Positions 18,901 to 62,740 of a DNA stretch of 64,000 bases are shown piece by piece. Source of the stretch: Tubulanus polymorphus (taxonomy: Eukaryota > Animalia > Nemertea); contig NC_134036.1 in NCBI RefSeq assembly GCF_964204645.1, positions 5,858,600 to 5,922,599 on the forward strand, read 5' to 3'. The notes beneath the pieces were generated by a model, which saw only the letters and a list, made by a program, of their open reading frames with translations, did not search any database and was not told where the DNA came from. The number at the start of each line of letters is the position of its first letter. Positions within the stretch are counted from its first letter, which is position 1. The position numbers were made by a program, and so were the translations under genes.

Positions 18901-18924
18901 AATGTTCTCTTGCTTTCTTATCTA

Positions 18925-43548: not shown

Positions 43549-43613
43549 ATGCAAACTTCAAGCACAACGAAACTGCTTGAAATTGAAATCGCGCAGTTCT
43601 GGAGTTGAACGTC

Positions 43614-44198
43614 AGTAATAGGGGTAATAGGCTTTCATACCAAAGGTCGAACGGTCGAGCCCATTAAAAAACAAAATATTAAAAGTAATTAAAAAACTAT
43701 AATATATTTTCATAACCGCGTGCATTTTATATCAAAACTAAATATTTATTCTAAGATATCAATAATATAAAAAGCATATTGTATTAAATCAATTAGTCGC
43801 TCCACTTCGCTACCGCTCCGCTCCGCGACCAATTGATTTAATTACAATACACAAATTCAAATAATCAAATATATTCAAATGATAATAATTATTCTATTAT
43901 TCAACTGAAATGCACGCGGTTATGAAAATATATTATAGTTTTTTAATTACTTTTAATATATGTTATTAATGAACTCGATCATTAAACCTTTGATATGAAA
44001 GCCTATTACCCCTATTACTCTTAAAATATTCATTTAAATCATTGAACTTCTAAAATCAATTTTAATAAAAAATATAGTATTAAAATGGAAGCAAATAAAT
44101 ACTACTGCCCAACATGTAATATCGATATAGACAAGTCTCAAAAAGCAAGACACAATAAAACTATAACACATTTAGAGAATAAATTGAAACTAGAATAT
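43614..44198 (+). repeat. Maverick left TIR (585 bp)
   Basis: Reverse complement of 61353-61937; no mismatches seen by eye. Confidence 0.95.
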
Positions 44199-44321
44199 TT
44201 ACAGTTATATTCAGAACAGTTAACAAAAGGAAAGAAATTTATTGAATTATGGAACACTGATCCAAATAATGAACAATACGTTGAGGATACGATGTTTATA
44301 CTAGAACATGATTCTATTTGA
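44085..44321 (+). CDS. Chimeric 78-aa ORF: pPolB N-terminal zinc finger fused to a duplicate of the HNH-ORF C-terminus
   Basis: aa 1-38 are identical to the pPolB N-terminus (inside the TIR). LQLYSEQLTKGKKFIELWNTDPNNEQYVE resembles the end of 45631-46296. Confidence 0.55.
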   Translation: MEANKYYCPTCNIDIDKSQKARHNKTITHLENKLKLEYLQLYSEQLTKGKKFIELWNTDPNNEQYVEDTMFILEHDSI

Positions 44322-45029
44322 GCCTATATACATTCAATGTACAGAGCTATAGAATAAATCTATAAATTCGCAGCTGTTACGGTTGTTACTATAACAACGA
44401 GACATTATGACACGTCATAATCAGAAACGTGTAGAACACTCTAGAACCGGAACTAGATGACGTGGCATAATCAACGACGTGTCATTCTAGAAATCGCCCC
44501 GGAAATGGACATACGCTGTAATATTGTGCTCAGGATATTCTATCTTTCGAAACGAAATAAGGAGTTTATAGTTTACAATTATAAATCTAAATGTAAGTAC
44601 TGTTTGTTGTAGTTATTAGAGCTATTAAATATGAAACCTTTAGATATATTTAAGTGTATTTAGTATATCTTTTAGATAGATAGAGTTACCGCTAATATCT
44701 TTTAGATTAATAAAACACCATACGAATCAAGAAGTGATAGAGAAACTCAAGATACTCTTTCTGACTGAGGAATCAACAGCAATGGATATCAAACCAATAG
44801 AAACTGGCGTAGAATCACCAAAAGATCGACGAAGAAACTATATAAGAATTTCAAAAACATTAAGACTCCAATGATTAAGTTTAACATTTGTTGATGTAGT
44901 TAAATATTTACCAACAATTGAAAAAATGTTTGTAATTATAAATTGTATTTATAGAAATCAAATGATGTATTGGAAGAAACGACTGAACAACTTGTATAAT
45001 GTATTGTGTAAATCTGTTTGGTGAATTTT

Positions 45030-45495
45030 TATGTTCAGTCGTTTCAATAATAATTCGTTTCAATTATGATTAGCGCATGCGCATTAAGCAAAAGCGCTCC
45101 TATAAGAGCGGTTTTGCCTAATGCGAACACGTTTTGATATTTTATGTCGGTCGTTTCTATTTACATAATTATATATTCATTATGTAAATATAATTATGAT
45201 TAACGCATGCGCATTGATCAAAAACGCTCCTATAAGAGCGGTTTTGCCTAGTGCACATGCGTTTGAATTTTCTATGTTCAGTTGTTTCTATTTCACAGAA
45301 TGAATATATAATTATGATTAACGCATGCGCATTGATCAAAAACGCTCCTATAAGAGCGGTTTTGCTTAGTGCGAACACGTTTAGATATTTTTTGTCAGTC
45401 GTTTCTATTTTACAGAATTTACAGAATGAATATATAATTATGATTAACGCATGCGTATTAAGCAAAAGCGCTCCTATAAGAGCGGTTTTGCCCAG
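45030..45495. repeat. Four ~118-130-bp tandem repeats with internal palindromes inside the Maverick
   Basis: aattatgattaacgcatgcgcatt...aaaacgctcctataagagcggttttgc at ~45062, 45192, 45310 and 45437. Confidence 0.9.
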
Positions 45496-45630
45496 TGGTA
45501 TTATTTAGATATCAAGGAATCGAAACAACTTATCAAAAGCAGCGAGGAATGAAAAAGGATGGCGTTGATCGAAGAAATGGAAGAGGATTATAAAATATTA
45601 ACCAATTTAGTAAAAAAATACATATAATAA

Positions 45631-46296
45631 ATGGAACCAGAACAACCACAAACTATCAATATTACAAATAACACTGGTGTTATAAACATATATTACAAGA
45701 AGTGTTCTAAATGTGAATTAGATAAATCATTAACAGAATTTAGTAAGCGTAAGATTAGCAAAGATGGTTTTCAATATTGTTGTAAAACTTGTACTAAACT
45801 ATATACCAAACAATATCGAGAAGATAATATAAAACATTATAATTATTATATGACAAAATATATGAGAGAAAGATATCAAACAGATCTTAATTTTAGATTG
45901 AAACAATGCTTAAGGACTAGATTAACACAATTATTCAACAAAGAAACACATTCAGAAACACTATCTAATTTATTGGGTTGTTCGGATGAATTTCTCAAAT
46001 CATGGATTATATTTCAATTCGATGATAAAATGAATATAGATAATTATGGGGATTATTACCACATTGATCACGTGTTACCAATATCTAAATTTAACATGAA
46101 TGATGAATACAATAAAAAACTTATTTGGGGTTGGAAAAATTTAAGGCCTTTAGAAAAGAAAGAAAATCAAATCAAATCTAATAAACTAGATTTACAGTTA
46201 TATTTAGAACAGTTAACAAAAGCAAAGAAATTTATTGATCAATGGAATAATAATCCAAATAATGAACAATACGTTGAGTCTTTAATGAGTGGTTAA
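45631..46296 (+). CDS. HNH / endonuclease VII-like nuclease with N-terminal Cys4 zinc ribbon (NCLDV-type)
   Basis: CSKC...CKTC, then YHIDHVLPISKF...WKNLRPLEKKENQIKSNK (beta-beta-alpha-metal motif). Confidence 0.8.
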   Translation: MEPEQPQTINITNNTGVINIYYKKCSKCELDKSLTEFSKRKISKDGFQYCCKTCTKLYTKQYREDNIKHYNYYMTKYMRERYQTDLNFRLKQCLRTRLTQLFNKETHSETLSNLLGCSDEFLKSWIIFQFDDKMNIDNYGDYYHIDHVLPISKFNMNDEYNKKLIWGWKNLRPLEKKENQIKSNKLDLQLYLEQLTKAKKFIDQWNNNPNNEQYVESLMSG

Positions 46297-46521
46297 AGAT
46301 TAATATATCTCAAATAAAATATAATAAAAATTACATACCTTCAACTATCTATTATTTCTATTTTAATTTTTAATATTTTCTTTTCAAAAGAGAATACTTT
46401 ATATCACAAATAAAAAATACTAAAAAAACAATAACTAATACTAGAATTCTTTAGCTTTAACTAGCTAGTATCATTTGAAGAATACTTATAATACTATTCT
46501 TATTAAATTTCTATAATATAA

Positions 46522-47127
46522 ATGTCTAAGAAATCGAATAAGAATAATATTAAAGTTGAAAAAACTTTGGAAGATTTAGGTCTAACAGATGATAATGATA
46601 ATGTGGTAACTAAATGTGATAATAAAATTGATAGTAATATTGATTATGAATACTATTTATATTGTAAGCATCATCTAGAACTATTGATTGCGAGTGGAAA
46701 AACTAAAGAGTTTATTGGTAAAACAATAACTTTTCAAGAATTAGATAATATGAACAAAGAAAAAGTAATTAAATATTTTAAGATTTATGAAGAGTCAAGA
46801 TTAGCTAGAATAAATGATTCTATTTCAGATGGTATTGTCAAATGTTATTCAAAATTATGTAACCGGCTAATACCAATTGATGATGAAAATAAATTATATA
46901 GTGATTTGAAAAATGACTACTTAGTTATGACTGAATTACAAAAATGGGTTGGATATGCTTCATTTCAATTAGGATCGGTTATGACATTGATTTCTACTGG
47001 CGTCATAACATTTTCGAACATCAAACCTATGGAATATAAATCAGGTAAGAACGAAACAGATGTACTACAACAAAACGTCGAAACAGAAAATGAATCAGAA
47101 CAAAAATTAACTAAAATAAATGAGTGA
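46522..47127 (+). CDS. Maverick hypothetical protein (201 aa; hydrophobic segment near the C-terminus)
   Basis: Intact ORF, TAAATG start, overlaps the next ORF. Confidence 0.75.
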   Translation: MSKKSNKNNIKVEKTLEDLGLTDDNDNVVTKCDNKIDSNIDYEYYLYCKHHLELLIASGKTKEFIGKTITFQELDNMNKEKVIKYFKIYEESRLARINDSISDGIVKCYSKLCNRLIPIDDENKLYSDLKNDYLVMTELQKWVGYASFQLGSVMTLISTGVITFSNIKPMEYKSGKNETDVLQQNVETENESEQKLTKINE

Positions 47128-47482
47128 TGGAGTTAAGAAAAAGGCTAGATCCGAGAAACAAATTAAATGGGCAAGAGAATTAGGTAAAAGATCATCAGAA
47201 TTAAAAAAAGCTAAGAAAAAGAAATTAACTGATATAAATGAATCACCTGGTATTGATTCAAATAATAATCCATCTAATAGATTCAGCACAGCTGAATCTC
47301 ATAATTACTTATATATTACAATTGGGTTAATCACAATTATTATATTATCCGGTGTAATATATAAATCAAAATTCAAATCTGACGATAAAGATGATCGGAA
47401 ACTTAGTTATCCATGTACAGACAATAAACCACCAGAAAATAAATCAAATGAAAATAAATCTAAAATATTATTAATGGATTAA
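47120..47482 (+). CDS. Maverick small basic protein with one transmembrane segment
   Basis: Lys/Arg-rich N-terminus; YLYITIGLITIIILSGVIY; TAAATG start. Confidence 0.75.
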   Translation: MSDGVKKKARSEKQIKWARELGKRSSELKKAKKKKLTDINESPGIDSNNNPSNRFSTAESHNYLYITIGLITIIILSGVIYKSKFKSDDKDDRKLSYPCTDNKPPENKSNENKSKILLMD

Positions 47483-47485
47483 AAT

Positions 47486-48574
47486 ATGATGAAAAAAGAA
47501 CAATATTTAAGAGATTTATATTACAACCCAGAAAGTGAAGTTTCATATTCAAGTGTTTCGGAATTATGGGATAAAATTAAATCTGATAAAGAAAAAATAA
47601 AATATAGTGAATTAAAATCATGGTTACAAAATCAACCAACATATCAAATTCATAAAAAGATGGATAAAAAATATTTAACAAGAAAAGTTATGGTTTCATA
47701 TATCGATCAGCAATGGCAAGCTGATTTAATTGATATGAAAAACTTAGAAGAATATAACAAAGGATATTTTTGGATACTGAATGTTATAGATATATTCAGT
47801 AGATACGCATGGAGTATCCCGATAAAAAATAAAACTGGTATAGAAGTAACAAATGCTTTTAAATCTATATTTAAAGAAGCTATTCCAGATAAGATACAAT
47901 TTGATGAAGGTAAAGAATTTTATAACAAACATTTCAAAAAACTATTATCTGATAACGATGTAGAATATTTTTCAACACATTCAGATAAAAAAGCATCTGT
48001 TATAGAAAGATTTAATAAAACATTGAAAACTAGAATGTGGAAATATTTTACTGCTAATGAAACATATAAATATATCGATGTGTTAGATGATTTAGTTAAA
48101 GGTTATAATAATTCTAAACATAGTTCTATAAATATGAAACCTATACAAGCTAGAAAAGAAGAAAATTCAGAAATAGTTTGGAATAATTTATATGGAGCAT
48201 TTGTTACACATGATTTTGGAGAACCTAAATTTAAAATAGGACAACACGTAAGAATTTCTAAATATCGAAAAACATTTTATAAAGGTTATACCCCTAATTT
48301 TACAGAAGAAATATTCAAGATTAAAAAGATAATATTAACTAAACCATTTGTTTATAAATTGTTTGATTTAAAAGATGAAGAAATATTAGGTTATTTTTAT
48401 GAACAAGAATTATCATTAGTACCAAATCCAGATGAAATAGAATACAAAATAGAAAAGGTATTGAAAACAAAAACTCTTAAAGGAAAAAAGTATTCTTTGG
48501 TGAAATATAAAGGATATGATGATAAATTTAATGAATGGATTTTATCTAGTAAAATTAAAAGAATAAATGAATAA
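47486..48574 (+). CDS. int: Retroviral-like (rve) DDE integrase with C-terminal chromodomain
   Basis: WQADLIDM, IDIFSRYAW, IQFDEGKEF, KASVIERFNKTLK; chromo-like YKIEKVL...LVKYKGYDDKFNEWI. Confidence 0.96.
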   Translation: MMKKEQYLRDLYYNPESEVSYSSVSELWDKIKSDKEKIKYSELKSWLQNQPTYQIHKKMDKKYLTRKVMVSYIDQQWQADLIDMKNLEEYNKGYFWILNVIDIFSRYAWSIPIKNKTGIEVTNAFKSIFKEAIPDKIQFDEGKEFYNKHFKKLLSDNDVEYFSTHSDKKASVIERFNKTLKTRMWKYFTANETYKYIDVLDDLVKGYNNSKHSSINMKPIQARKEENSEIVWNNLYGAFVTHDFGEPKFKIGQHVRISKYRKTFYKGYTPNFTEEIFKIKKIILTKPFVYKLFDLKDEEILGYFYEQELSLVPNPDEIEYKIEKVLKTKTLKGKKYSLVKYKGYDDKFNEWILSSKIKRINE

Positions 48575-49181
48575 AGATTTATTTATATTTGAACCACATA
48601 ATATGTTAGTTACTGGAGTTACAAATTGTGGTAAAACACATTTCATATTAGATTTATTAGAAACTATTTATAAGAATCATTTTGATAATATAATATTATT
48701 CTGTCCTACATATGAAATGAATGAAACGTATAATAGAGATATAGTTTTTAAAGATAAAAAGTTTATTATATTAAATTCTAAAACAGTGAAAGATAATTTA
48801 GATAATTGTATAAAAATTGCATTAGATATTTATAAAGGATCAAATACATTATTTATTATTGATGATTGCGCAAATTTACATGATTCTAAAATTAGAGAAA
48901 GTGAGTTATGTTATTTAGCTTTCTCTGGTAGACATTTTGGGATAACAACTTGGGTTTTAAATCAGAAATATAATTCAATTGTGAAAGATTTTAGAGAGAA
49001 TATAAGATTTCTAGTTTTATTCTACAACAAAGATAGAAAATCTATGCAACAATCATTGGAAGAAAATCAAATTATACCTCCTGAATTACATGATGAATAT
49101 ATGAATAAATTAAAAAATAATAAAGGTTCAAAATTATTACTGAGATTACAATTTCCATATGAATATAAATTTATAAAATAA
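48567..49181 (+). CDS. A32/FtsK-like DNA packaging ATPase
   Basis: Walker A GVTNCGKT, Walker B LFIIDD, SGRHFGITTWVLNQ (Arg finger and Gln). Confidence 0.93.
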   Translation: MNKDLFIFEPHNMLVTGVTNCGKTHFILDLLETIYKNHFDNIILFCPTYEMNETYNRDIVFKDKKFIILNSKTVKDNLDNCIKIALDIYKGSNTLFIIDDCANLHDSKIRESELCYLAFSGRHFGITTWVLNQKYNSIVKDFRENIRFLVLFYNKDRKSMQQSLEENQIIPPELHDEYMNKLKNNKGSKLLLRLQFPYEYKFIK

Positions 49182-49199
49182 CTATTTGTATACCTATGT

Positions 49200-49310
49200 A
49201 TTAGATACCCTATTATATACCCTAATACCTGATACCCTAATACCTGATACCTTAATACCTGATACCTTAATACCTGATACCCTAATACCTGATACCCTAT
49301 TAGATACCTT
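49200..49310. repeat. 15-bp tandem repeat between convergent gene blocks
   Basis: (ctaatacctgatacc)n, about 7 units. Confidence 0.9.
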
Positions 49311-49367
49311 AAATAATTTAAACCCCCTTTTTTATTTACTATTATTTTATACAATTTTAAACCTTTA

Positions 49368-50339
49368 TTATTCGAGTTTTAGATAATCAATTTCTGAATC
49401 ACTTTCACTATCAGACGCTAACAATTTATTTAAATGCTCTACCGAATCTTCTTCAATATCTTTATAATTTTTTTTCACCTTTTTCACCTTTTTCACCTTT
49501 TTTACCTTTTTCATATTTTTTACTAAATCATCAATAGTTGTTTCATTTTTAAACTTATTCTTCCAATCAAATTTATTATTATTTTCTACTTTAAGTTTTA
49601 TAGAATCTTTATTATCAATATGTTTAACTGTAACTATATCATCATGTGGGTGTATGGCACCATTTTCATTATCATCTTTATTAGTGTTTGCTCCTAATAT
49701 TTCATTTACAGTGTTTGATCCTAATATTTCATTAGCATCGGTTAAATCTAATTCATCTTTATTAGGTGTTGCTAATAAAAAATCTTCATATAATTCTTTA
49801 CCATTTACTTTTTTATTTGAAACAAACTTTGTAACATATCTAAATGGGTGTTCTATAAATTCTCTTAAACCAACACGTTCTATAACATTAGTAATATGTG
49901 AATTTGTATTTATATGTTTATTCCAATTTGATGGAGCGTTTGAAAATTCACCATTACAATAACCACAATAATTTCTATTTTCACTAACATCTAATATTAT
50001 TGTATTATTATATGTAGAAGGTATTATATTATTTGATGTAGAGGGTATTACAGATGTAGAAGGTATTATGTTATTAGATGTAGAAGGTATTACATTATAA
50101 GATGTAGAAGGTATTACGTTATTAGATGTAGAAGGTATTACATTATTATCAATTACATTACTTAAATTATCAACAACTTCACTTTTATTATTATCGATTT
50201 CTATTAGTTTAGTTTTATAATTTTTAAAAATAGGATCAAATATCAAAGCTATATTACAAGGTATTACATAATATAAACCATCATTATTTTCATGTGTATC
50301 GATGTATGGAATATGTTTATATACTTTACCTCCTTCCAT
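49368..50339 (-). CDS. Maverick hypothetical protein with C2H2-type zinc finger, VIPSTSNN repeats and (KKV)n tail
   Basis: YCGYC...WNKHINTNSH; 24-bp coding repeats at ~50010-50150; TAAATG start. Confidence 0.8.
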   Translation of the reverse strand: MEGGKVYKHIPYIDTHENNDGLYYVIPCNIALIFDPIFKNYKTKLIEIDNNKSEVVDNLSNVIDNNVIPSTSNNVIPSTSYNVIPSTSNNIIPSTSVIPSTSNNIIPSTYNNTIILDVSENRNYCGYCNGEFSNAPSNWNKHINTNSHITNVIERVGLREFIEHPFRYVTKFVSNKKVNGKELYEDFLLATPNKDELDLTDANEILGSNTVNEILGANTNKDDNENGAIHPHDDIVTVKHIDNKDSIKLKVENNNKFDWKNKFKNETTIDDLVKNMKKVKKVKKVKKVKKNYKDIEEDSVEHLNKLLASDSESDSEIDYLKLE

Positions 50340-50371
50340 TTATTATATATATTTTTATTAAAGTTAAAATT

Positions 50372-51619
50372 TTAATACATAACACTATCTAACTGTGAAT
50401 CTACAATATTTAATTGCGCATCAGATATAATATAAATATGCATTTTAAAATTTTTGATTCCCTTTTTCTTTGTCATGAATAATTGTATTCCATCTTTTGT
50501 ATTTTGTAGTTTTTTCCCAGAACCATGTAATGAATTATCCTCTGTTGTTCTAAAATCTAACCATAATGCATATTTATTACCGGTATAATAGTCAATTTGA
50601 TTAATATTACAATTTTCAAATGATTTTATTTTTTCATTCATAAAATGTTTTTTAATTTCTACCCATTGATCTATCATTCTCATTCCTTGACAAAATATTT
50701 TATTTGCTATTCCTTCGATAGTTATTTCTACTTTTGTTATTTCAGGATTATAATAATTATCAACATTTATTGCGCCATTAGTATACGTTCCAATGGTAAA
50801 AAATATTAATATACCTTTAATAGATCTTCTAGGAAAGTTAATATTCTCATTAATAATTTCATCATTTGCATTAAAAGTTACAGTTTTAAATTTATCAATA
50901 TAATCATATAATAATGAAAATCCTTGATTGTATTGAGTTTGAATTATAGTTGAAATATTTTCATCAGTTACTGTATCATATTCTAAACATATATTCGATA
51001 ATTTATAACTCATATCTTTAACAACGCTAGATAATACAATTTCATTTACAGGAGCAAATGTTATCTCAAATATAATATCTTCTTGAATTGCGTATTTATA
51101 TAAAGGTGCATTATTATTTATCAATTCAAAATCTAATGGAATTTTATATTTACTTCCATATATACTTTTTATCAATTTATCTACATCATTAGTTAATATT
51201 GCGCTATTAGCTTCTGATCTTAATCTATTTTGGTTTTCTGATTGGATGCCTTGAAATATCATATTATTTCTATTTTCTTTAGTTAACCATAAATCTTTAT
51301 AGTGCATAAATAAATTATAATCATCTAATGAGAAAACTGTTTCCGGACCAATCTTTATTGTTAACTTTTTAATCAAATATCTTCCAACATTATCAACAAC
51401 ATAATTATTATTATTACCGATTACTTTTATATCAGCGGATAAATAAATACTATTTGGAACGTAAAAAGTATTTTGTGTTAATCGAGGGATTCTAACGTAT
51501 AAAGTTTCATCGGGATTAATATTTGAAGGGTTATGAGTAATTATATGATGTGATCTTTCTGCTTTAATAGCATTAGATATTCTATTATTCTTAGAAGGAT
51601 TGATATAACTCCCACTCAT
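50372..51619 (-). CDS. Putative major capsid protein (double jelly-roll)
   Basis: 415 aa, beta-rich; motifs ITHNPSNI...LYVRIPRL, YKLSNICLEYD, ENINFPRRSIKGILIFF and YALWLDFRT...LHGSG resemble invertebrate Polinton MCPs (from recall, not a search). Confidence 0.75.
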   Translation of the reverse strand: MSGSYINPSKNNRISNAIKAERSHHIITHNPSNINPDETLYVRIPRLTQNTFYVPNSIYLSADIKVIGNNNNYVVDNVGRYLIKKLTIKIGPETVFSLDDYNLFMHYKDLWLTKENRNNMIFQGIQSENQNRLRSEANSAILTNDVDKLIKSIYGSKYKIPLDFELINNNAPLYKYAIQEDIIFEITFAPVNEIVLSSVVKDMSYKLSNICLEYDTVTDENISTIIQTQYNQGFSLLYDYIDKFKTVTFNANDEIINENINFPRRSIKGILIFFTIGTYTNGAINVDNYYNPEITKVEITIEGIANKIFCQGMRMIDQWVEIKKHFMNEKIKSFENCNINQIDYYTGNKYALWLDFRTTEDNSLHGSGKKLQNTKDGIQLFMTKKKGIKNFKMHIYIISDAQLNIVDSQLDSVMY

Positions 51620-51685
51620 TTATTTAACAAAAAAATAATTAATTTTTGATATCATGGTTTACTTGATATTTTTTGATATCATGGT

Positions 51686-53383
51686 TTACTTGATATCTTT
51701 TGATATCATATTCACTAACCCAAAAATAATAGCACTTACAACTGTAATTAAAAATAAAATAATATGTTCAGCAGCAAAGTTAATAATGTTTCCTGCAGAT
51801 TTCAATATAAAACCAACAATTGATGCAATAACTCCTGGTAATGCTGCAGCAGATTTTTTAGATAGTTCCCATAAATATTTTGCTAATTTCTTTAAACCAT
51901 CTTTAACTTTATCTTGCATAGAATTATTGTTTGGAGGTTTATCTGGTTTATTGGGAGTAGGAGTAGATTTTAAAGCATTTGATATTACTAAACCAATTGT
52001 TGTAAATACCATAGTTACAGATGTTAGAATTGAAAGAATTGTTATTCCTTCTAACTTAAATAATAACTTTATTCTGTCTTTTAATGATATTTCAGAATTT
52101 GGTTTAATCAACAAATCTTTAAAAATAACTTTTAATCTATTAATATTATAATCATATGATTTTAATAATAATTTAATTTCTTCTTTTTGTAATTCTATGT
52201 TATATTCTAAATCATCTATTTCTTTTTCTAAATATACATTTCTTTTTTTAAATTCGATTTCTTCAATAACTTGATTATCTCTATCTAATTTTAGTTGTTC
52301 TATTTCTTTATTTTTATCAGTTCTATCTTTTTCTAAAAATCTAATTTTAATATCTCTTTTACTTTTTTCATGCGCAATTTTATCAGCTGATTCTTGCATA
52401 CCTTTAATTTCTCTACGTGTTTGTTCAGGAAATGCTTCTAATTCATCATCAGTTAAATCAAGTAATCCTTTTTCTAGTAAAGATTGTATTCGATTTATTC
52501 CAGCACTATTCATCAGTTCTTCTGAATCTCTTAATCTATCAATTTGTTTTTCTAATTGTAATTTACTTGAATCATTATCAATTTGTTGAGTGTCTCTTCT
52601 AGATGTTTCGGGTGTTGAAGATCTTAATCTATCTAATCGATTTCTATTCTCTTCCATTTCTGGATCAAAATCAGTAGGATTTGGATTTGGATTTTTAAAT
52701 GGATTTTTAAATGGTGAATATTTGTTTATATCAATTTTAGGAATTGGTTCTTCTTCATTTATTCTATCGAGTGCATTCCATATAATTCTGAGAAATTCTG
52801 TGCCACCTTTTGAATGTTCAATTGTAGATAATGCTCGCATTTCAGGTTCATAAATATTTTCTTGACCCATTTTAGATAATTGAATTGATACAATTTTGTT
52901 ATTTAAATCAAGATTATAATACCATGCATCATTTTTAAATTCTAAATTATTCATGAAATATGGGTCATCTTTAAAAATTTGTTCTACAACACCTTTTGGA
53001 TCAATTTCATGTATTACAGCTATTGGTAGTAATTCGCTAACAATTGTATCTGTTACTTTAGATTTCATTTTATATAATTCCAAACGTTCATTAGGATATT
53101 TTTCTTCTTGTTTTACTAATAATTCCATGAATTCTTTTCTTTCTGTTCTAGTTGAAATTTTACCACTTTCAAGAGCTTCTAAATATTTATTTAATTTTTC
53201 ACGTACTTCGGTATTAATTCCATCATCATCATCATAATCATCTTCACCTAAATTAGTATTATATGCTGATTCATCATCATAATCAATATTAGTTTCTGTA
53301 TCATTATAATCATCATCAATATATCCTTCATTATTATTTCCCATTTCTCCCATTTCATAATCTTCTCCACCTTCTACATCCAT
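51686..53383 (-). CDS. Maverick 565-aa protein: acidic N-terminus, long coiled coil, C-terminal hydrophobic/amphipathic helices (candidate membrane-penetration protein)
   Basis: GITILSILTSVTMVFTTIGLVI, ALPGVIASIVGFIL and IILFLITVVSAIIFGLV segments. Confidence 0.8.
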   Translation of the reverse strand: MDVEGGEDYEMGEMGNNNEGYIDDDYNDTETNIDYDDESAYNTNLGEDDYDDDDGINTEVREKLNKYLEALESGKISTRTERKEFMELLVKQEEKYPNERLELYKMKSKVTDTIVSELLPIAVIHEIDPKGVVEQIFKDDPYFMNNLEFKNDAWYYNLDLNNKIVSIQLSKMGQENIYEPEMRALSTIEHSKGGTEFLRIIWNALDRINEEEPIPKIDINKYSPFKNPFKNPNPNPTDFDPEMEENRNRLDRLRSSTPETSRRDTQQIDNDSSKLQLEKQIDRLRDSEELMNSAGINRIQSLLEKGLLDLTDDELEAFPEQTRREIKGMQESADKIAHEKSKRDIKIRFLEKDRTDKNKEIEQLKLDRDNQVIEEIEFKKRNVYLEKEIDDLEYNIELQKEEIKLLLKSYDYNINRLKVIFKDLLIKPNSEISLKDRIKLLFKLEGITILSILTSVTMVFTTIGLVISNALKSTPTPNKPDKPPNNNSMQDKVKDGLKKLAKYLWELSKKSAAALPGVIASIVGFILKSAGNIINFAAEHIILFLITVVSAIIFGLVNMISKDIK

Positions 53384-53399
53384 TTACATAATAAAAAGA

Positions 53400-54788
53400 T
53401 TAAAATTTAAAATATAATATTCCTCCGATTACAATTCCTATACAAGTTATAGCTAATTTAGTATTTTCATGGGATTTATTATCATCATTTAGTTTAATTA
53501 TATCATGTTGAATTTTATCAGTTCTATTATTTTCTGTAGTATTGTAATCTTTTATTTTAGAATCATTATCCAATTTAATATTCTTAGTTTTAGTTTCAGT
53601 TGATTGAATATGTTTTTTATTTTTTTCACCTTCCATTAATTTTGGAGCAGTAATAATCTTTTTATTTATATCATTTAATCCAAATGAATTATTTATTGTT
53701 GCAGTTTTAATTAGATTATTATAACCAATTATGTTTCCCATCTTTAATACTAAATCATTAGAAATAATTAATAGATTAGGGCCTATACAATAATTAAGTC
53801 TTACATGAGATTTATCTAAATAATTTTGATATCTTATAATGTTTTCTGGAATCGATCTATTTTTATCATTATGAATTGAATCTTCAAATAAAACTTTAAA
53901 TTGTTTTTGTGTATCAAATGATGTATTCAAATTTCCAATTATCGGTGATCTTGTTTCAACTTGTGATCCTAGAATACAAATCAAATAAATTCTAATAGAT
54001 TGATTTATTCTTTCTATACCTGATTTTGTAAAACCTTCACTATTTTCTAAAATAAAATAAACCCAACCATTATTGTTTTCTTGTTTTAAATTATCATAAA
54101 ATTTTGGTAATTTATTGAAATTTAATGTTTCTAAATCCTTTGTTTCTATTTTACCATAACCTAATTTATTATTATAGATATTATAAAAACTATTAGATGG
54201 TATGGGAAGTGCACAATATTCTGCAATCTTTTTAGGGCAAGGAAGTGATCTTATTGTTCCAATTTTTGTTCTAAAATCAGAATTATTTATATCTATATTA
54301 AATTCATTGCAAATTTTATAAAACTTAGATAAATTAATATTATTATCTAATTCTTTAAAATATCTAGATCCTGGTAAAGCGCACTCTAATTCATTTAATA
54401 TTATTCTGATTTGAAAATATGTATGAAATCTAAATAAACTTTGAATTAGTTTATATTTAGAATTATTCAAATGATCATTCCAACTTATTCCACATCCTGT
54501 TGTTGCACAATAAACAGCAAAATTTAATTGGTTCTGCCAATACTTCATATTAGATTTTAATAACCATTGTTTTTCATCTTTCGATTTTTTAAAATTAATT
54601 AAATATACATGAAATATATTTTCCATCTTTGTATTAAAATTATTAGTTTCAGTAACATAAATTTCTAAATTAGTTAATGAATCTAAAACTTCATTTCTAT
54701 ATGTAATATCTTTATTAAAATCTATTGCTGGAATATTATATTTAATTGATTTATTATATTGGAAAGCTTTTGGAAAACTATCTGCCAT
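53400..54788 (-). CDS. Maverick 462-aa protein with C-terminal membrane anchor
   Basis: WQNQLNFAVYCATTGCGIS and FRFHTYFQIR motifs; tail LAITCIGIVIGGILYF. Confidence 0.8.
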   Translation of the reverse strand: MADSFPKAFQYNKSIKYNIPAIDFNKDITYRNEVLDSLTNLEIYVTETNNFNTKMENIFHVYLINFKKSKDEKQWLLKSNMKYWQNQLNFAVYCATTGCGISWNDHLNNSKYKLIQSLFRFHTYFQIRIILNELECALPGSRYFKELDNNINLSKFYKICNEFNIDINNSDFRTKIGTIRSLPCPKKIAEYCALPIPSNSFYNIYNNKLGYGKIETKDLETLNFNKLPKFYDNLKQENNNGWVYFILENSEGFTKSGIERINQSIRIYLICILGSQVETRSPIIGNLNTSFDTQKQFKVLFEDSIHNDKNRSIPENIIRYQNYLDKSHVRLNYCIGPNLLIISNDLVLKMGNIIGYNNLIKTATINNSFGLNDINKKIITAPKLMEGEKNKKHIQSTETKTKNIKLDNDSKIKDYNTTENNRTDKIQHDIIKLNDDNKSHENTKLAITCIGIVIGGILYFKF

Positions 54789-54804
54789 TTATATAATTAA
54801 AAAA

Positions 54805-55239
54805 TTAATAATTTATTAATTCTTTTAATAATTTATCTTGTTCTTCAACTGTTATATGACCATTTAAACTTATTATATAATCTAGTGTGTTCTTTAATTT
54901 ATTAATTTCTTTTATATTAATTTTAATTTTTTCTTTATTACTTTTTATATTTAATTTTGAACTTATACCAGTTAAAACACTTGAACTTAATCCTAACACA
55001 CCAATTGATATAGCTAAAGGTGTTAATGGACTGAATATTGCTAGAAATGTTATTACAGAACTAATTGTAACCGAACCACTGATAATCAAATAATATATAA
55101 TTTTACTTTTTAAATATTTTTTCTTTTTTATCTTTAAGTCACTTTCAAATTCTAATATTTGTTTTTCTAAATATGTTTTTAATTTAGTTTTATTTATATC
55201 ATGAGGAATAATATCAATACTATCAACTTTATCTTCCAT
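54805..55239 (-). CDS. Maverick 144-aa two-TM membrane protein
   Basis: IIYYLIISGSVTISSVITFLAIF and LAISIGVLGLSSSVLTGI between basic coiled segments. Confidence 0.78.
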   Translation of the reverse strand: MEDKVDSIDIIPHDINKTKLKTYLEKQILEFESDLKIKKKKYLKSKIIYYLIISGSVTISSVITFLAIFSPLTPLAISIGVLGLSSSVLTGISSKLNIKSNKEKIKINIKEINKLKNTLDYIISLNGHITVEEQDKLLKELINY

Positions 55240-55259
55240 TTATTTAACAAAAAAAATTA

Positions 55260-55682
55260 CTAATTAGTAAACTTATAAGCAACAAATATAACAATAACTG
55301 TTCCACCTAAAATCCAAATTATTTCATATTTCTGTTGTTCTTTACTTGGGGTATAATAATCTGATAATTTAGGTTTGTATAGATGTAATTTTTCTTTATT
55401 GGTTACTGTGTTATATAAACTCATTGCATCATCAACTGATTGAAAATCTCTGTGTGAAATCTTCTGATCGTATAATTCTTTATTGATGTAATCCATATAG
55501 TTTTGTCTCTTTTCTCTATATTCTTCTACAGCTTTATTGTATTTCTCTAACGCTAAGTTATGTCTTCTTTGTTCTCCTAATGAACTATTTTTATCAATAT
55601 GTTTAAATAAATAACCACCACCAGTAAATGCTAAAGCGTTAACAATTGCTGATCCTATAATAGTTATAATTGCAGAAGCCAT
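55260..55682 (-). CDS. Maverick 140-aa membrane protein
   Basis: Hydrophobic N-terminus MASAIITIIGSAIVNALAFTGGGYLF, EQRRHNLALEK, C-terminal TM IIWILGGTVIVIFVAY. Confidence 0.8.
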   Translation of the reverse strand: MASAIITIIGSAIVNALAFTGGGYLFKHIDKNSSLGEQRRHNLALEKYNKAVEEYREKRQNYMDYINKELYDQKISHRDFQSVDDAMSLYNTVTNKEKLHLYKPKLSDYYTPSKEQQKYEIIWILGGTVIVIFVAYKFTN

Positions 55683-55706
55683 TTATTTAGCAAAAAAATT
55701 ATGTAT

Positions 55707-55928
55707 TTATATGGGAGGAATACATTTTTGTTTTTCCAAATGACCAATAGTTAAATTAGATAAAGTAACTGCTAATGTTAACTTTAAAATATCATTTATA
55801 TCAAATCTATCAACATTAACACTTCCCATTTTGAATACTTTTTTTAATACCATTGAATAACCAACAGTTCCAACTGATAGTAATGCGCCATTATATAATC
55901 CAGTTATTATCCACTTATAATCACTCAT
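55707..55928 (-). CDS. Maverick 73-aa hydrophobic protein
   Basis: Two hydrophobic segments; T-run plus TAAATG start like its neighbours. Confidence 0.72.
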   Translation of the reverse strand: MSDYKWIITGLYNGALLSVGTVGYSMVLKKVFKMGSVNVDRFDINDILKLTLAVTLSNLTIGHLEKQKCIPPI

Positions 55929-56270
55929 TTATTTATCAAAAAAATTACTATCATCAAAATATTTAGTTATCTTATTTATGATTATTTCAACATTTATTTC
56001 ATTACTAGTTTTATGATTATCATATATTTTGGATAATATGTTTTTAATATCATCAATAATTCCATCTTCATTTAATTCATAATATTCTAAAGGTGATTTA
56101 ATTAAATCAATTACTTTTTCTATATTATACTTTTCTTTATCAATCATTGATGTATTGTTAAATGATTTACTTTTTATATCAGTAATTACATCATTTAGTT
56201 TAATTCTCATTTCTTTACCATGTTTAAAATCAAACCCAAAACATATACTCGGTCCAACAGTTATATTCAT
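55929..56270 (-). CDS. Maverick hypothetical protein (113 aa)
   Basis: Intact ORF, T7-N7-TAAATG start; its stop abuts the next ATG. Confidence 0.7.
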   Translation of the reverse strand: MNITVGPSICFGFDFKHGKEMRIKLNDVITDIKSKSFNNTSMIDKEKYNIEKVIDLIKSPLEYYELNEDGIIDDIKNILSKIYDNHKTSNEINVEIIINKITKYFDDSNFFDK

Positions 56271-56287
56271 TTATATAGTGAAAAAAA

Positions 56288-57046
56288 TTACTCTCTACAT
56301 CTTATAACTAATTCATATATCACAGGGAAATTATTCAAATCAATTAAGTATCCATTATGATTTCTAATTTCTAATCTAAAATTATTAAAACGAGGAATGC
56401 ATGGTTTGAAATCACATTCTGTTAAATTATAATTTATTTGCGTTCCAAATTCTTTAACATTCTTCAATGGTAAAATGTTTAGTAAACCAGAATTACAAGT
56501 TATATCTTTAGTTGCTTCGAATGTTTTTGTAGGATCGATTAAATTGCAATAAATATAAAAATGTGTAAAAGGCATTATATTTGGTGTAGCATCAGCATTG
56601 CGTATCCTTATATCTGGGGTTATTCCTAAAATTTTAGCTAAAGGTTTTTTAACTAGAAATTGATGTTGATCTTCATTACCTAATTTTATTCTTATTTTAT
56701 CAGAACTATCACTTTTAATCAGTCTTAATCCAAATCCAGCAGATGCACCCATTTTCAACCGAGCTCTTCTATTAATTTCTTGAGCTAATGTTTCTAAATT
56801 ATATAATCCTGGTTTAAGATAAAGATGAAACCATTTACTTTTATTTCTATCATGAATTAAAAAGACTCTATGTTCAATAGACTTATCCGATACATTGTAA
56901 AAAGAATTACATAAACTTATATTTACTAATTTTAAATCTACACAATTCTTAAATTCTCTGTCTAATTGTACTAATAAATTATGTGATTTATAATTTGTAA
57001 GTTTTCTAGAATCAACAAATATTCTATATTCTTTTAATTCCGCCAT
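56288..57046 (-). CDS. Putative minor capsid protein (penton, single jelly-roll)
   Basis: IFVDSR...SFYNVS...LKPGLYNLETL...LAKILG...FYIYCNLI...LEIRNHNGYLIDLNNFPVIYELVI pattern typical of Polinton/virophage mCP. Confidence 0.8.
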   Translation of the reverse strand: MAELKEYRIFVDSRKLTNYKSHNLLVQLDREFKNCVDLKLVNISLCNSFYNVSDKSIEHRVFLIHDRNKSKWFHLYLKPGLYNLETLAQEINRRARLKMGASAGFGLRLIKSDSSDKIRIKLGNEDQHQFLVKKPLAKILGITPDIRIRNADATPNIMPFTHFYIYCNLIDPTKTFEATKDITCNSGLLNILPLKNVKEFGTQINYNLTECDFKPCIPRFNNFRLEIRNHNGYLIDLNNFPVIYELVIRCRE

Positions 57047-57063
57047 TTATTTTACATATTTTC

Positions 57064-57405
57064 TTATTCGAAATCTATTTCATGGTGCCCTTTTTCATTC
57101 TTACCTTTGTATACGAAATAGAAATCTCCAGAACATAATTCTTCTAGATCTTCACTTGATAATCTATGAAATCTATCTGGTAAATAAGTTCTGAATTTAT
57201 ATTTATTTCCTTTTAATCCTTCATATTCTAAATGAATTATTAATTTATCTCCATATTTATTAGTAATTGTTTCAATGTTAGTAATTAAATATTTCTTGTG
57301 AATTGATAATTCTGTTAACTTTTTGAATTTATAATCTACAGATTTGACGTTTGAAGTATCTTTAATTCTATCTAAGAATTCACTGTGTACTTGTTTACTC
57401 TCCAT
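57064..57405 (-). CDS. Maverick 113-aa protein, possible OB-fold ssDNA-binding protein
   Basis: FKKLTEL...YLIT...TNKYGDKLIIHL...TYLPDRF beta-rich pattern, adjacent to pPolB; function is inferred. Confidence 0.65.
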   Translation of the reverse strand: MESKQVHSEFLDRIKDTSNVKSVDYKFKKLTELSIHKKYLITNIETITNKYGDKLIIHLEYEGLKGNKYKFRTYLPDRFHRLSSEDLEELCSGDFYFVYKGKNEKGHHEIDFE

Positions 57406-57433
57406 TTATTATAGAAATTTTTATTGAAATTGA

Positions 57434-60400
57434 TTAACATGTTAGAATCCTTTTCATAATCTCATTTTCTTTTGTTTCTTCTCTTTTGAATTTTATATAT
57501 TCATCTAAATTGCAACCATAGGCGACTGTGTGGATTCCATCATCTAAAATATATCTTTTATCATCAAATGGGTTTAGACTTATCTTCTCTATCTCTTCAA
57601 TATACATTTCATGATCTTCAGATCTTAAACATTTCATTTTATGTTTTCTAACTTCTTCATTAAATATACAATTGATGTAATCTTTGAAATGAATATTCTT
57701 TTCTACTACACTTTTTGTTATTCCTTTTAACTTTTTAGCTTCATGTTCTTTAGTTTTATAACTATACATTTTAGATCTAATACCAATGAACTCTATCATT
57801 TTTCTTCACCGCCTAATTCATCCTTAAACTTCCCAGGAACTTTTTTATTATCATTGCTAAACAATTCATGATCTTTAGGATAGTTACTGAAATCAAAATG
57901 ATGATTTAATATTTTTAAATCATCAGTTATGTTATCACTTTTTATCTTTAATATGTAAGAATCTGTATCTAGATATAAGATTTCTATATTTTTTTCCCCA
58001 AAATGGGGATGCAATACATTATAATAGAATTCATACATCAATAGCTTTGATAACTCTAAAACCGATGCGCCAACATAAATAGGTTTATTGAATTTAATAG
58101 ACGTTCTCTTCATCGTAACTGCTGCTAAATTTTCATCGAATATTCTATTACCTATGAATTTCGGATACGATTGCAAATGTCTAATTCTTTTACCATTACT
58201 AACTAACTCAATATCATTTCTATTTCTTATGTTTTCACATGTTTTTCCATAGAACGCATTATTCATTAGTTTAAAGTAATCTTTTTCAAAATCAGTTTTA
58301 GCTTCAGTTCTCTGTGTAGTATTAAAATCTATATATTTTTCTAACCACTTAGATTGATTAAATGAAATATATCTATGTACTTTTTTTAGAATCATTCCTT
58401 GATTCAAATAAAACTTCAACATTCTATAATGTACTACATAATTATATTTATCTTCTTGAGTTACCATTAACTTTTCAGTATGAATATGATTATCGGGTTT
58501 AATTCTTTTTTGATAATTTGATAATTCTTCATGTTTAACAGTTTTATGTTCGGGACAATATGCTAGATTTCTAGATTTGAATTTAATATTTTCAGGGTAT
58601 TCTAAATCTACAACAAAGAAGTAACCAGTATCTGAATCATCTGCAATATCTAGGATTCTTTTCTTCCAATCAAATTTATCAATTTGTAAAACTTCAGTTA
58701 TTTCAAACATCCCATAAGGTTGTGGTTCCATCATTGCCCAACCATAAAGATTATTTGCATCTATGTATAATAATTTATATCCAGGATTATCATTTACATT
58801 GAAATATCTATCACCCAATACACCTGAAACACCTCCTCTTATAGATTTTTCAAATAATAGTAATTGATCTATATTTGTTAACAAATCCATTTTTATATCT
58901 GTAAATTTTGAACCACAATCCCATGTTAAACCTGGGCTAGAATAACAATGACAAGGATCAATATTAAAGTATTTTAGGTTTACATCTCTAAACCTTTCAA
59001 ATATATCGGTTAATAATAATACATCTGATTTTAAATATAAATCTACTAATTGTCCATGATTTTCTATTTTGAAATGATTCCAAATATTCAATGTTCTATT
59101 ATATACTTCATCTTTAACATATTCATTTTTTAATTCATCATAGAATTGTTCTTTCAATAATTCAGTTATTTTAAAATCATTATGATTTTTATAGAAAGAA
59201 TATGGAATTGCGCCTTTATATCTCATTAATTTAAAATCATCATAATTTGGGTAATATTCTTTTAATATCTTTAATTCATCATCAACTAATGATTTTGATA
59301 GATTGTCTAATGAACTATTTAAAAATCTATATGAATCTATAAATCTTAGACAACCAAATTGGAATGATATATAATTCTCAGATGTATTAGCTAACATTCT
59401 AAATTTATAAGTTGGTATTTTATCTTTTGATTTATTTGAATTTAATATTTCTATTTCATTATTGATTTCTTCTATTTTATAACATAGCTGTTTGATAAAT
59501 AAATGTGCATCATATCCTGATAGATTATGAAATATAACTGGTACAAAATTAATTTTCTTAGCTACAAGTTACAATTCTCATGTGCAGCGCCTCTAAACTT
59601 TCCATTCAAATGATCATGGTCTCTTACTTTTTTATCTTTATAATTAAATATCTTTTCACAATAATAACATTTATCTGCAAACGCAAATTCTTCTTTATCT
59701 TCTTCTATCATTATAATTTCTATATTTGTATTCAATAATTTACTAAATCTTATTTCATATTCAATTAATAAGTCACAAAAATGATTGATAACATTTTCAT
59801 TTCTATAATTATAATATTCACTTTCAATTAGTTCTGGATAATCAGATTTAATATATAATCCGAAAGCTGCAGCTGATTGATGAATCTTTTTAATTGTATT
59901 TGTTATTGGTGGTTCTTCTGAATAATCATTTTCATTGGAATTTAATTTCTTTCTTTTATAATATATATCTTTTCTATCTTGATCAGTTAATTCTTTATTT
60001 AATGATTCAAAATCTCCATATATTACAAATGGTACTTTATTTTTGTAATCATATTTTTTGAATTCTAATATTTTATCCTTTTCACTTGGTAAAACTAATT
60101 TACAATAATCATGATTTTCACATAATTGTTTATGATCTAATAATGTACTTTCATTACTGAATTTATGTAAACATTTTCTACATAGATATATTTTATTATG
60201 GTGATCACTTTCTGTTCTAAAGAATAAATCTATTTGTTTAATCCACATATAATGATTCTCAAAATATAATATATCTATAACCACGTTTGAATCATAATCT
60301 TTTGATAGGTATAAAGGTTCTAATGTATAATGTTTAATATTATTTCCTTTTGTATTTGGTAATTTAATTAAATCAAATACATTTATTTTAAGATTATTAT

Positions 60401-61466
60401 CTCTTTCTATTTTTGGAATATTTTTAATTCTAACAGGATATTTATCTATCTTATAATTATTTTCAAATTGTTTATAATGAGTTAATCTAAAACTATGTGT
60501 AATATCTTCTGTTGGATGTAAACAACTTATTATAGCCCATATAAAACATTTATTATCAAAATTTTGTATATTTATTACACCATTAGTTTTAAATGGTAGT
60601 TTAATATAACTTGTTCCATTTATATTATCATCTTTATAATATGATAAATTATTTTCATCAATTGGTTTTGATTTAGTTAACTTATTATATTTTGTGTTAT
60701 AAACATGTAAAGTTATAAATATTATCTCATCAAATATTAAACCAGATCCTTCAAAATATTTCTCTTCTATTTTAGTTTTTATTTCATTATAACATTTATT
60801 TAATTTATCATCTATATGTTGTTTAGATATAATATGTTGTGAATGAGAATTTATATTATATATTGGTTTATCTTCAGATTTTATAAACTTTACTTTAACT
60901 GATATACTAATTTTTGGATATTCTACGTTTGTAATTATTTTTATTATTTCTTTCATATTTTCTAAATGTTTTTTATTTTCTTCTATTGTTTTTCCTTTAT
61001 GAAATTTAAACTCGATAGCTGCTGGACCAATATCACTTTTAAATGCTTCGGTTATCTCTATATCTTTTTTATTATCTAATGAATTAATATAATTTCTTAC
61101 ATCTTCCATGTATGGTCTTTTATTGTTTAATTTATTTTTTATTCTTTTAATTGTCTTCTGTTTCTTATCGTTATCATTATCAAAATAATCTTCACCTAAA
61201 ATATCATTATTCTTATTTCTAATATGACTTATAGATTTTAAATGTTCTTTATAATATCTTTTATCACTGAATGATTGATTACATGTATCACATTTGTATG
61301 TTTCTTTTTCATTCTTTAATTCTTCTAATTTAGTTTCTAATATATCATCTTTATATTCTAGTTTCAATTTATTCTCTAAATGTGTTATAGTTTTATTGTG
61401 TCTTGCTTTTTGAGACTTGTCTATATCGATATTACATGTTGGGCAGTAGTATTTATTTGCTTCCAT
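57434..61466 (-). pseudogene. polB: Protein-primed family B DNA polymerase (pPolB) interrupted by two frameshifts (~59562 and ~57799)
   Basis: ExoI VIYGDFES, ExoII FHNLSGYDAHL (read in 59400-59560), ExoIII YLKSDVLLL, motif A YIDANNLYGWAM, motif B KLMNNAFYGK, motif C YLDTDS, EFIGIRSKMYS and C-terminal PFDDKRYI. Split across ORFs 59562-61466, 57796-59397 and 57434-57799. Confidence 0.95.
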
Positions 61467-61937
61467 TTTAATACTATATTTTTTATTAAAATTGATTTTA
61501 GAAGTTCAATGATTTAAATGAATATTTTAAGAGTAATAGGGGTAATAGGCTTTCATATCAAAGGTTTAATGATCGAGTTCATTAATAACATATATTAAAA
61601 GTAATTAAAAAACTATAATATATTTTCATAACCGCGTGCATTTCAGTTGAATAATAGAATAATTATTATCATTTGAATATATTTGATTATTTGAATTTGT
61701 GTATTGTAATTAAATCAATTGGTCGCGGAGCGGAGCGGTAGCGAAGTGGAGCGACTAATTGATTTAATACAATATGCTTTTTATATTATTGATATCTTAG
61801 AATAAATATTTAGTTTTGATATAAAATGCACGCGGTTATGAAAATATATTATAGTTTTTTAATTACTTTTAATATTTTGTTTTTTAATGGGCTCGACCGT
61901 TCGACCTTTGGTATGAAAGCCTATTACCCCTATTACT
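61353..61937 (-). repeat. Maverick right TIR (585 bp)
   Basis: Reverse complement of 43614-44198; includes the pPolB start and first 38 codons. Confidence 0.95.
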
Positions 61938-62169
61938 AACGTCGTTCAATCACATCATTGGATTCAGAGACCAGTAAATAAATATCTTAACCCGAATCGA
62001 TAAAGAAAAAAGCCACGCGTATAGATTTTGCTGCGGAATAAAATCCCCCAGGATCTTTGTAAACTAAAGGGATCAATACAAAAAGCAGTATTCATCCATG
62101 AAATGTTTCATATACTGTTTGCTCCGAACAAGACACAGAATCTTATGCATTTCTGTCATCAGTTTCCTT

Positions 62170-62520
62170 ACCGATTTTACAGTAGAATTTTTCCAGTCAC
62201 AACTTTACCGCACTAAGAGACAGAGTCTACTGTATTTCACAAACTCTTACTCAATATTTGACCCCAACTCGAGTTTGAATTTTTTCAACGCTGGACTTTA
62301 CCGCAGTAAGAGACAGAGTCTACTGTATTTCACAAACTCTTACTCAGTATTTGACAGCAACTCTACATCGATATTTGACAGCAACTCGGGGTAGAAATTT
62401 ACCAGTCTTAACTTTAATACAGTAAGAGACAGAGTCTACTGTATTTCACAAATTCTTACTCGATATTTGATACTAAACCGGGATAGAATTTTACCAGTCA
62501 CAATTAATAAGGCAGTAACA
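62170..62520 (-). repeat. 92-bp satellite family, reverse array
   Basis: taagagacagagtctactgtatttcacaaactcttactca repeated at least 3 times. Confidence 0.88.
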
Positions 62521-62740
62521 GACAAACACAACTCGTCTCGACGGTGAATTGAAATTAGGTCTTTACCGCGATTTCGGTTAATTCCAGAAATAACGAATCA
62601 TTTAAATATCACGAAAATAGAGGATTCCTCAGTCTTAAGGCAGGGATATTGCTAATGGATTTAATCGTTTAAGCTGCTGTGAACAATTCCGGTTCTGTAT
62701 GAGTATTTCGGGATATGTAGAAACAATTGGTTTAGTTTAA

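Follow-up and report, generated by a model that had tools for sequence, protein, structure and literature searches.

A start-fused TAAATG motif in one clade of animal Maverick/Polinton elements: a likely gene-by-gene promoter, possibly read by a co-infecting large DNA virus

Animal Mavericks/Polintons, described as adintoviruses (PMC8502044) and, in vertebrates, as 'proteoviruses' (PMC8097293), are elements of ~18 kb with terminal inverted repeats (TIRs), a 6-bp target-site duplication (TSD), an rve integrase with a chromodomain, a protein-primed family B DNA polymerase (pPolB), an A32 packaging ATPase and a double jelly-roll major capsid protein (MCP). Two points of interest are their mode of transcription and whether they live as viruses in their own right or as parasites of larger ones. 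The virophage idea has so far been based on host range and co-packaging: Barreat and Katzourakis 2021 suggested from host range that iridoviruses activate vertebrate Mavericks in a virophage-like way (PMC8097293), and Barth et al. 2024 described Maverick-related elements in entomopoxvirus occlusion bodies (PMC11296320). The idea is already in print, without promoter evidence. Here we analyse a Maverick/Polinton of the nemertean Tubulanus polymorphus carried in a window of 64,000 nucleotides (contig NC_134036.1; unprefixed positions are those of this whole stretch), for which an earlier note had proposed that nearly all genes start at TAAATG behind a poxvirus-late-type promoter.

The entomopoxvirus-associated polinton-like viruses of Barth et al. 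share with the window element that they are Maverick-related and proposed to be poxvirus hyperparasites in animals, and differ from it in encoding a protease and lacking an rve integrase (PMC11296320). For protist virophages, promoters shared with the helper are established; mavirus/CroV, Sputnik and Gezel-14T resemble the window element in having no polymerase of their own and a helper-type motif before their genes, and mavirus also carries an rve integrase (bioRxiv 2022.07.28.501842). These systems have protist hosts, Imitervirales helpers and an experimentally shown dependence (bioRxiv 2022.07.28.501842), whereas the window element has an animal host and a Maverick capsid. The yeast cytoplasmic elements pGKL1/2 are likewise linear with a TAAAN initiator, and form 5' poly(A) leaders by slippage; unlike the window element, they stay unintegrated, carry genes for an RNA polymerase and a capping enzyme of their own, and rely on an ATNTGA box upstream (PMC6211774). 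Against the clade-specific start motif shown below, no Maverick promoter is described in the portions of PMC8502044 and PMC8097293 available (the word 'promoter' occurs 0 times in the former and twice, off-topic, in the latter), and the corresponding text of PMC11296320 has 0 occurrences of promoter, motif, TAAAT or transcription. No report of TAAATG promoters in Mavericks was found among the best-ranked papers of a literature search that covered few subscription papers and no supplements.

The window element is a complete integrated Maverick/Polinton of ~18 kb at 43614-61937, with TIRs, a 6-bp TSD, a protein-primed family B polymerase, an rve integrase, a packaging ATPase and a double jelly-roll MCP. 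TAA stands directly before the ATG at 14 of its 16 genes, as had been claimed, and all 14 of these ATGs begin open reading frames (ORFs); pPolB starts with TAAAATG, and the integrase, which lacks the motif, reads TAAAAT-ATG. This is far above the AT-rich background, where TAA precedes 26 of 247 out-of-frame internal ATGs (10.5%; binomial p = 2e-12 for at least 14 of 16) and 57 of the 728 element ATGs on both strands, the 14 starts counted in. Seven of the 14 TAAATG starts, those of consecutive genes (51619, 53383, 54788, 55239, 55682, 55928 and 56270), have a core of at least five Ts, each showing the described arrangement of T5-8, a 6-7-nt spacer and TAAATG. A feature that the earlier note did not mention is a T at position -12 from the A of the ATG, present in 14/14 TAAATG starts of the element. 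Two marks of poxvirus late promoters, TAAAT(G) over the start codon and a T-rich core ~5-7 nt upstream, are thereby present; depletion of T5NT in the sense strands is weak (z = -1.7).

The motif was compared with that of other Maverick clades, a check that the earlier note had called for, in 69 relatives from an MCP alignment (68 metagenome contigs and one genome contig; ORFs called from the first ATG after a stop). TAAATG was found at 47/52 starts in 12 close loci (after exclusion of three near-duplicate loci and of three whose matches were short or broken, and with 4/56 ORFs dropped as fragments) and at 6/301 starts in 51 distant loci. In an MCP tree built from 34 full-length rows, the loci with the motif fall into a single 15-row clade (support 99/98), in which 14 rows carry TAAATG at half or more of their starts (L010, 0/2), and the 19 rows outside have at most one such start each. 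Within the clade, TAAATG is kept in relatives of 40-44% GC (L006, L007) and despite altered gene order, and even the integrase has it in L001 and L003. T at -12 occurs at 56/61 starts of window and relatives combined and at 45/123 non-start TAAATG words (p = 1.5e-13). With a matrix built from 47 starts of the relatives, eight window starts were the top eight of 2236 ATGs and 13 were in the top 19 (pPolB ranked 41, the ATPase 80 and the integrase 518), a test that is not fully independent since some training starts are orthologous to window starts. Divergent genes 19, 24, 28 and 30 bp apart bear TAAATG on both strands. Selection at each gene is suggested by the presence of the motif at accessory genes too, namely a deoxynucleoside kinase gene in L003 and the HNH genes of four loci; the kinase gene, L003:10340-10981, has the full T-run/TAAATG start, and its homolog search gave no viral names among the matches. 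We conclude that the motif is most likely a gene-by-gene promoter and initiator.

As to what reads it, no RNA polymerase subunit, TBP, VLTF or capping family was found among the 18 ORFs of the element (Pfam and NCBIfam; PHROG for 14), in line with the earlier claim that it encodes no RNA polymerase, so that the reader is likely supplied in trans. We put at roughly 0.55 the probability that this reader is the polymerase of a co-infecting large DNA virus, initiating in the AAA, and that the element works like a virophage. The signal, composed of a T-rich stretch with its peak 12 nt upstream and of TAAATG on nearly every start codon, would then act as a promoter for the RNA polymerase and late factors of a pox- or iridovirus-type virus. 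Transcription would start within the AAA, so that the mRNA would not include the T at -3 and would be nearly devoid of templated leader; slippage might add A leaders, as it does in vaccinia. The helper promoter would presumably resemble, without equalling, that of chordopoxviruses, and helper infection might, speculatively, reactivate integrated copies as in mavirus.

The features of the element are as follows (coordinates, strand, description).
43608..43613, unstranded: left target-site duplication AACGTC; same 6 bp at 61938-61943
43614..44198, unstranded: left TIR, 585 bp, first letters AGTAAT; 0 mismatches to the right TIR
45062..45536, + strand: four ~120-bp repeats, each with CGCATGCG and a CTATAAGA word in an imperfect palindrome (repeat family search)
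45631..46296, + strand: HNH/endonuclease VII-like protein, 221 aa, TAAATG start of A-run type (phrog_1035, E 1.6e-17)
46522..47127, + strand: conserved all-helical 201-aa protein, not TBP-like, TAAATG start (predicted fold, sequence)
47120..47482, + strand: 120-aa ORF with hydrophobic segment, TAAATG start, 8-bp overlap with the upstream gene (ORF list)
47486..48574, + strand: rve integrase with chromodomain, start TAAAAT-ATG (PF00665, E 1.8e-9)
48567..49181, + strand: A32-like packaging ATPase, TAAATG start (Pox_A32, E 1.7e-12)
49368..50339, - strand: 323-aa ORF with a C2H2-like finger (weak lead) and low-complexity repeats, TAAATG start of A-run type (sequence)
50372..51619, - strand: double jelly-roll MCP, 415 aa, T7 / 6 nt / TAAATG (structure model)
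51686..53383, - strand: 565-aa conserved protein, coiled-coil-like, C-terminally hydrophobic, T5 / 6 nt / TAAATG (sequence)
53400..54788, - strand: 462-aa conserved protein with hydrophobic C-terminal tail, T6 / 7 nt / TAAATG (sequence)
54805..55239, - strand: 144-aa SLATT-like two-helix membrane protein (weak match), T8 / 6 nt / TAAATG (family scan)
55260..55682, - strand: 140-aa conserved small hydrophobic protein, T7 / 6 nt / TAAATG (sequence)
55707..55928, - strand: 73-aa conserved small hydrophobic protein, T7 / 6 nt / TAAATG (sequence)
55929..56270, - strand: 113-aa ORF, T7 / 7 nt / TAAATG (ORF list)
56288..57046, - strand: 252-aa protein, putative minor capsid protein (penton), TAAATG start of A-run type (Atlas features)
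57064..57405, - strand: 113-aa ORF, TAAATG start (ORF list)
57434..61466, - strand: pPolB, three ORFs in three frames, start TAAAATG in the right TIR (DNA_pol_B_2, PF03175, E 7.5e-15)
61353..61937, unstranded: right TIR, 585 bp, identical to the left TIR
61938..61943, unstranded: right target-site duplication AACGTC, matching the left

The MCP model (pLDDT 83.5) matches the capsids of PBCV-1, SGIV and mavirus in a fold search (E 1.6e-16 to 1.2e-10). PDB profile searches with the MCP, 462-, 201- and 252-aa families gave nothing significant, a fold search with the 201-aa model gave no match, and MCP searches of viral contigs found no relative. The 252-aa protein scores 0.98 in the Atlas to Nucleocytoviricota and Preplasmiviricota clusters and has no PDB match; the HNH homolog search gave three matches. 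The definition of adintoviruses includes an adenain-like cysteine protease, whereas Pfam, PHROG and NCBIfam scans of the window element detected none, although a very divergent one could escape them. Placement in Maveriviricetes is not indicated, with no protease detected and with MCP relatives in Maverick-type loci, several of which carry pPolB and integrase. pPolB, previously taken as one gene, is split by frame breaks near 59562-59568 and 57796-57805 into its three ORFs, so this copy, as assembled, is not autonomous. Its start and first codons (61353-61466) lie inside the right TIR; the left TIR thus holds a duplicate start, which opens a 78-aa ORF at 44085-44321 whose end resembles that of the HNH ORF. 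The four repeats at 45062-45536 may, judging from their sequence, be a host-read promoter, enhancer or origin, and could, speculatively, drive a host-run early phase; CGCATGCG in them is a putative NRF1-like word. Short tandem arrays lie at 49217-49299 (15-bp units, in the gap where the ATPase and 323-aa genes converge), 49998-50148 (24-bp units, within the 323-aa gene) and 51643-51709 (27-bp units, ahead of the MCP start).

The start motif was then set beside viral gene starts. Vaccinia late promoters are described with a T-rich core, a 5-7-bp spacer, TAAAT(G) and a conserved T ten nucleotides upstream, and intermediate promoters with TAAA and an A-rich region (PMC5294985, PMC11980589). Most late mRNAs of vaccinia carry no cap (PMC12722222). 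Shared between the element and these vaccinia and chordopoxvirus late and intermediate promoters are the TAAAT(G) overlapping the start, the T-rich core, the 5-7-nt spacer and the A-rich variant (PMC5294985, PMC11980589, PMC6211774). In 12 chordopoxvirus loci, TAAATG was found at 8-14 of 19-22 starts; the share is ~90% in the Maverick clade and ~40-70% in poxvirus central regions. None of the fetched viral loci was recognised as that of an entomopoxvirus. Six further loci (L190, L191, L195, L201, L204 and L086), which to judge by their Pfam matches are probably iridovirus- or pimascovirus-like, have TAAATG at 11/18, 6/20, 8/21, 4/19, 11/18 and 3/9 starts, counts that are biased for L190, L204 and L086, which came from a TAAATG pattern scan (the first five loci are 21-23 kb long). 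Iridovirus-like starts are mostly TAATAAATG (27/39, vs 9/61 in the Maverick clade); in L190, L191, L195, L204 and L283, TAAATG stands at 30-60% of gene starts, again mostly as TAATAAATG. The available part of an iridovirus review mentions just an AAAAT motif, and reports iridoviruses from a marine worm, nautilus and shrimp, with a nuclear stage (PMC5923455).

Among 73 further viral loci from a helicase alignment, not individually classified, three have TAAATG at a third or more of their starts, in one case with just 2 ORFs counted, and many have TATA just before the ATG. A scan of viral contigs for divergent TAAATG returned at least 120 stretches, 80 with flanks, mostly in loci with few TAAATG starts. 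The baculovirus TAAG and nudivirus late motifs, as given in PMC13483298, do not match TAAATG. A start-fused initiator is a common nucleocytovirus style, and the version of this clade is identical to that of no sampled virus. A virophage in the functional sense would share its promoter motif with a specific helper of its host; the motif of this clade is shared in part with pox and iridovirus-like loci, with no exact match.

Of the poxvirus-late-type promoter that had been proposed, the motif stands: it is real, clade-wide, fixed in position and carried by divergent and accessory genes. The assignment to a poxvirus in particular is not supported, and neither are the helper dependence and the antiviral role as the note put them. 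Iridovirus-like loci also use TAAATG, the fit of the Maverick start profile to poxviruses (r = 0.29) is no better than that to iridovirus-like loci (r = 0.33, p = 0.047), and the pox T peak lies one base further upstream, so that 'poxvirus' is too specific. Taken singly, each candidate helper is in our estimate unlikely: a pox-like virus is the first to consider, and an iridovirus-like virus and another nucleocytovirus are each less probable still, and equally so.

Several results weigh against transcription by a helper virus. The T peak is at -12 in the Maverick clade (56/61, with T at -13 in 45/61) and at -13 in the 12 poxvirus loci (63%, with -12 at 33%); the fit of the two profiles is modest (column-permutation p = 0.043), rising to r = 0.49 when shifted by 1 nt, and the 137 pox start contexts are orthologues across genomes. 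Iridovirus-like starts have no T peak at -12 (18/39). By tblastn, no gene was found in common between the element clade and the fetched pox and iridovirus-like loci, the sole matches being of HNH to one other viral contig. A pox polymerase subunit gene was found neither in the window element nor by tblastn with the ORFs of the close relatives, part of which were also scanned against Pfam. The starts of the relatives are partly orthologous, so their counts are non-independent. Distant Mavericks without the motif are packed equally tightly and have AATAAA at 1/32 convergent ends (low power). It had been argued from gene gaps of 0-33 bp that there was little room for Pol II promoters. The gaps in fact run from -8 to 225 bp (225 before 46522, 66 before the MCP, two 8-bp overlaps), and, the motif-less Mavericks being as compact, tight packing says nothing of which polymerase is used. 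Neither a transcript or 5' end of the element nor a helper virus has been observed; one possible RNA run has a single short matching piece, which carries no weight on expression. A polymerase in the cytoplasm has no direct access to a copy integrated in the nucleus, and other Mavericks are transcribed in coral (PMC11131425) and cavefish tissues (PMC8502044) with no helper reported in the text available. Finally, a sister clade has its own VLTF3-like gene, and VLTF3 is also found in polymerase-less, presumably nuclear mriyaviruses (PMC11253617), which opens the main rival explanation.

In this sister clade (L014:623-8921, L027:1-8392, L021:1392), TATA lies 4-20 nt before 21/30 ATGs (background 0.048, p ~ 2e-21), mostly as (A/T)TTC, ~10 bases, TATA and then 1-17 nt to the ATG. 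This TATA is too close to the ATG for a Pol II TATA box and by analogy resembles the late initiator of African swine fever virus (ASFV), whose late 5' untranslated regions have a median of 9 nt (PMC7163114). The VLTF3-like protein is encoded at L014:6543-7052 and L027:5082-5579 (Pfam E 6e-4 and 3.6e-5); 5/6 of its homologs match the same family, one above the gathering cut-off. This VLTF3-like gene links the lineage to nucleocytovirus-type late transcription. L014 also has a Bcl-2 gene (2448-2861). Other start styles occur further out: the AT-rich distant Mavericks L016, L017, L046, L054 and L069 have AAATG at most starts (L017, 9/9) without T at -3, possibly a third promoter style, and GC-rich L022, L025, L028, L038, L049 and L062 have GTTCAA(T/C) within ~15 nt before the MCP start. 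L069 is a Maverick capsid locus on a contig filed as a bacterial metagenome-assembled genome, probably binning contamination, and a capsid homolog labelled Bartonella (P0046) looks like the same kind of contamination.

The rival thus opened is that nuclear host RNA polymerase II reads the motif with a viral late factor, VLTF3- or TBP-like, given in trans by another Maverick family or a polymerase-less virus. It draws on the VLTF3-like protein of the sister clade with its own (A/T)TTC-N~10-TATA box, on mriyaviruses that retain VLTF2/3 without a polymerase (PMC11253617), on the nuclear location of integrated copies and on the expression of coral polintovirus genes (PMC11131425). Yet the VLTF3-like profile finds no match in the window element when all six frames are searched (best E 0.48), and the element has no TBP match either. 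Where the initiator is fused to the ATG, moreover, there is hardly any leader for Pol II, whereas the polymerases of pox and ASFV are known to slip at initiators of this kind. We consider this explanation unlikely, though deserving of attention.

That host factors alone read the motif, which would make it an atypical core promoter in this lineage of animals, appears improbable. The four repeats with host-like words upstream of the plus-strand block would fit it. Against it, TAAATG is found at 0/6 host G protein-coupled receptor (GPCR) starts in the window (paralogous, and so weak evidence) and at 40/1458 host-flank ATGs, and TATAWAW lies 25-120 nt upstream in 5/16 genes, compared with a background of 0.24.

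Slightly less credible again is a translational signal, either for reinitiation after a stop on polycistronic RNA or as a stop codon that guards the start in frame. The TAA is in frame with the ATG, the genes are closely packed and at one window start (55928) the TAA doubles as the upstream stop. However, it does so at just 1/14 window starts and 1/47 starts of the relatives; TAG or TGA would guard equally well and are unused, 14 divergent starts bear TAAATG, 13 of them with T at -12, and this fixed spacing suits a DNA-level element. A signal of the upstream gene's 3' end overlapping the next ATG, in which the T run with AATAAA would be a poly(A) signal of the host, or the T run by itself a terminator, is very improbable. 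AATAAATG is present at 32/61 starts and the T run directly follows the upstream stop in several window genes, but the divergent starts, which have no upstream gene on the same strand, keep the motif (AATAAA 5/14, T at -12 13/14), and AATAAA occurs at 1/12 convergent gene ends where shuffles predict 3.2. The divergent starts, the convergent-end counts and the rarity of stop overlap together make stop-start coupling, poly(A) signal and terminator all fail. Chance in a 76% AT element has a negligible probability: TAA is the commonest triplet before internal ATGs, but chance is refuted by the background counts (p ~ 2e-12), by the contrast between relatives, where the motif persists at GC 40-44%, and distant loci, where AT-rich L016, L017, L046, L054 and L069 use AAATG and almost never TAAATG, and by the T at -12.

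The element has a GC content of 24% in a surrounding host region of 40%. For the TIR and the non-coding part on the left (43614-45540) the CpG observed/expected ratio is 1.3-1.8, for the coding blocks (45631-61352) 0.5-0.6 and for the host flank 1.29. The insertion site is a tandem cluster of single-exon host GPCR genes (39569-43294 and 62741-63254), and two further GPCR paralog groups lie at 11170-21779. From three sequencing runs of one organism, 14,496, 3,042 and 3,595 short contig pieces match 50300-62600 at 90-100% likeness, which is consistent with a multi-copy family, summed depth not being equal to copy number.

A precise, clade-wide, start-fused motif makes the virophage question directly testable, and it predicts the promoter style of a helper virus. 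Neighbouring Maverick clades use different start signals, one of them alongside a VLTF3-like gene. On a broader reading, less likely than not in our estimate, some animal Mavericks would be integrated virophages with promoters that point to their helpers: this clade would be adapted to a polymerase of pox or iridovirus type, its sister to a TATA-initiator system with a VLTF3-like factor of its own. If so, the multi-copy Mavericks of invertebrates would be inducible and would parasitise large DNA viruses still to be seen, in the search for which their promoter words could serve as a guide.

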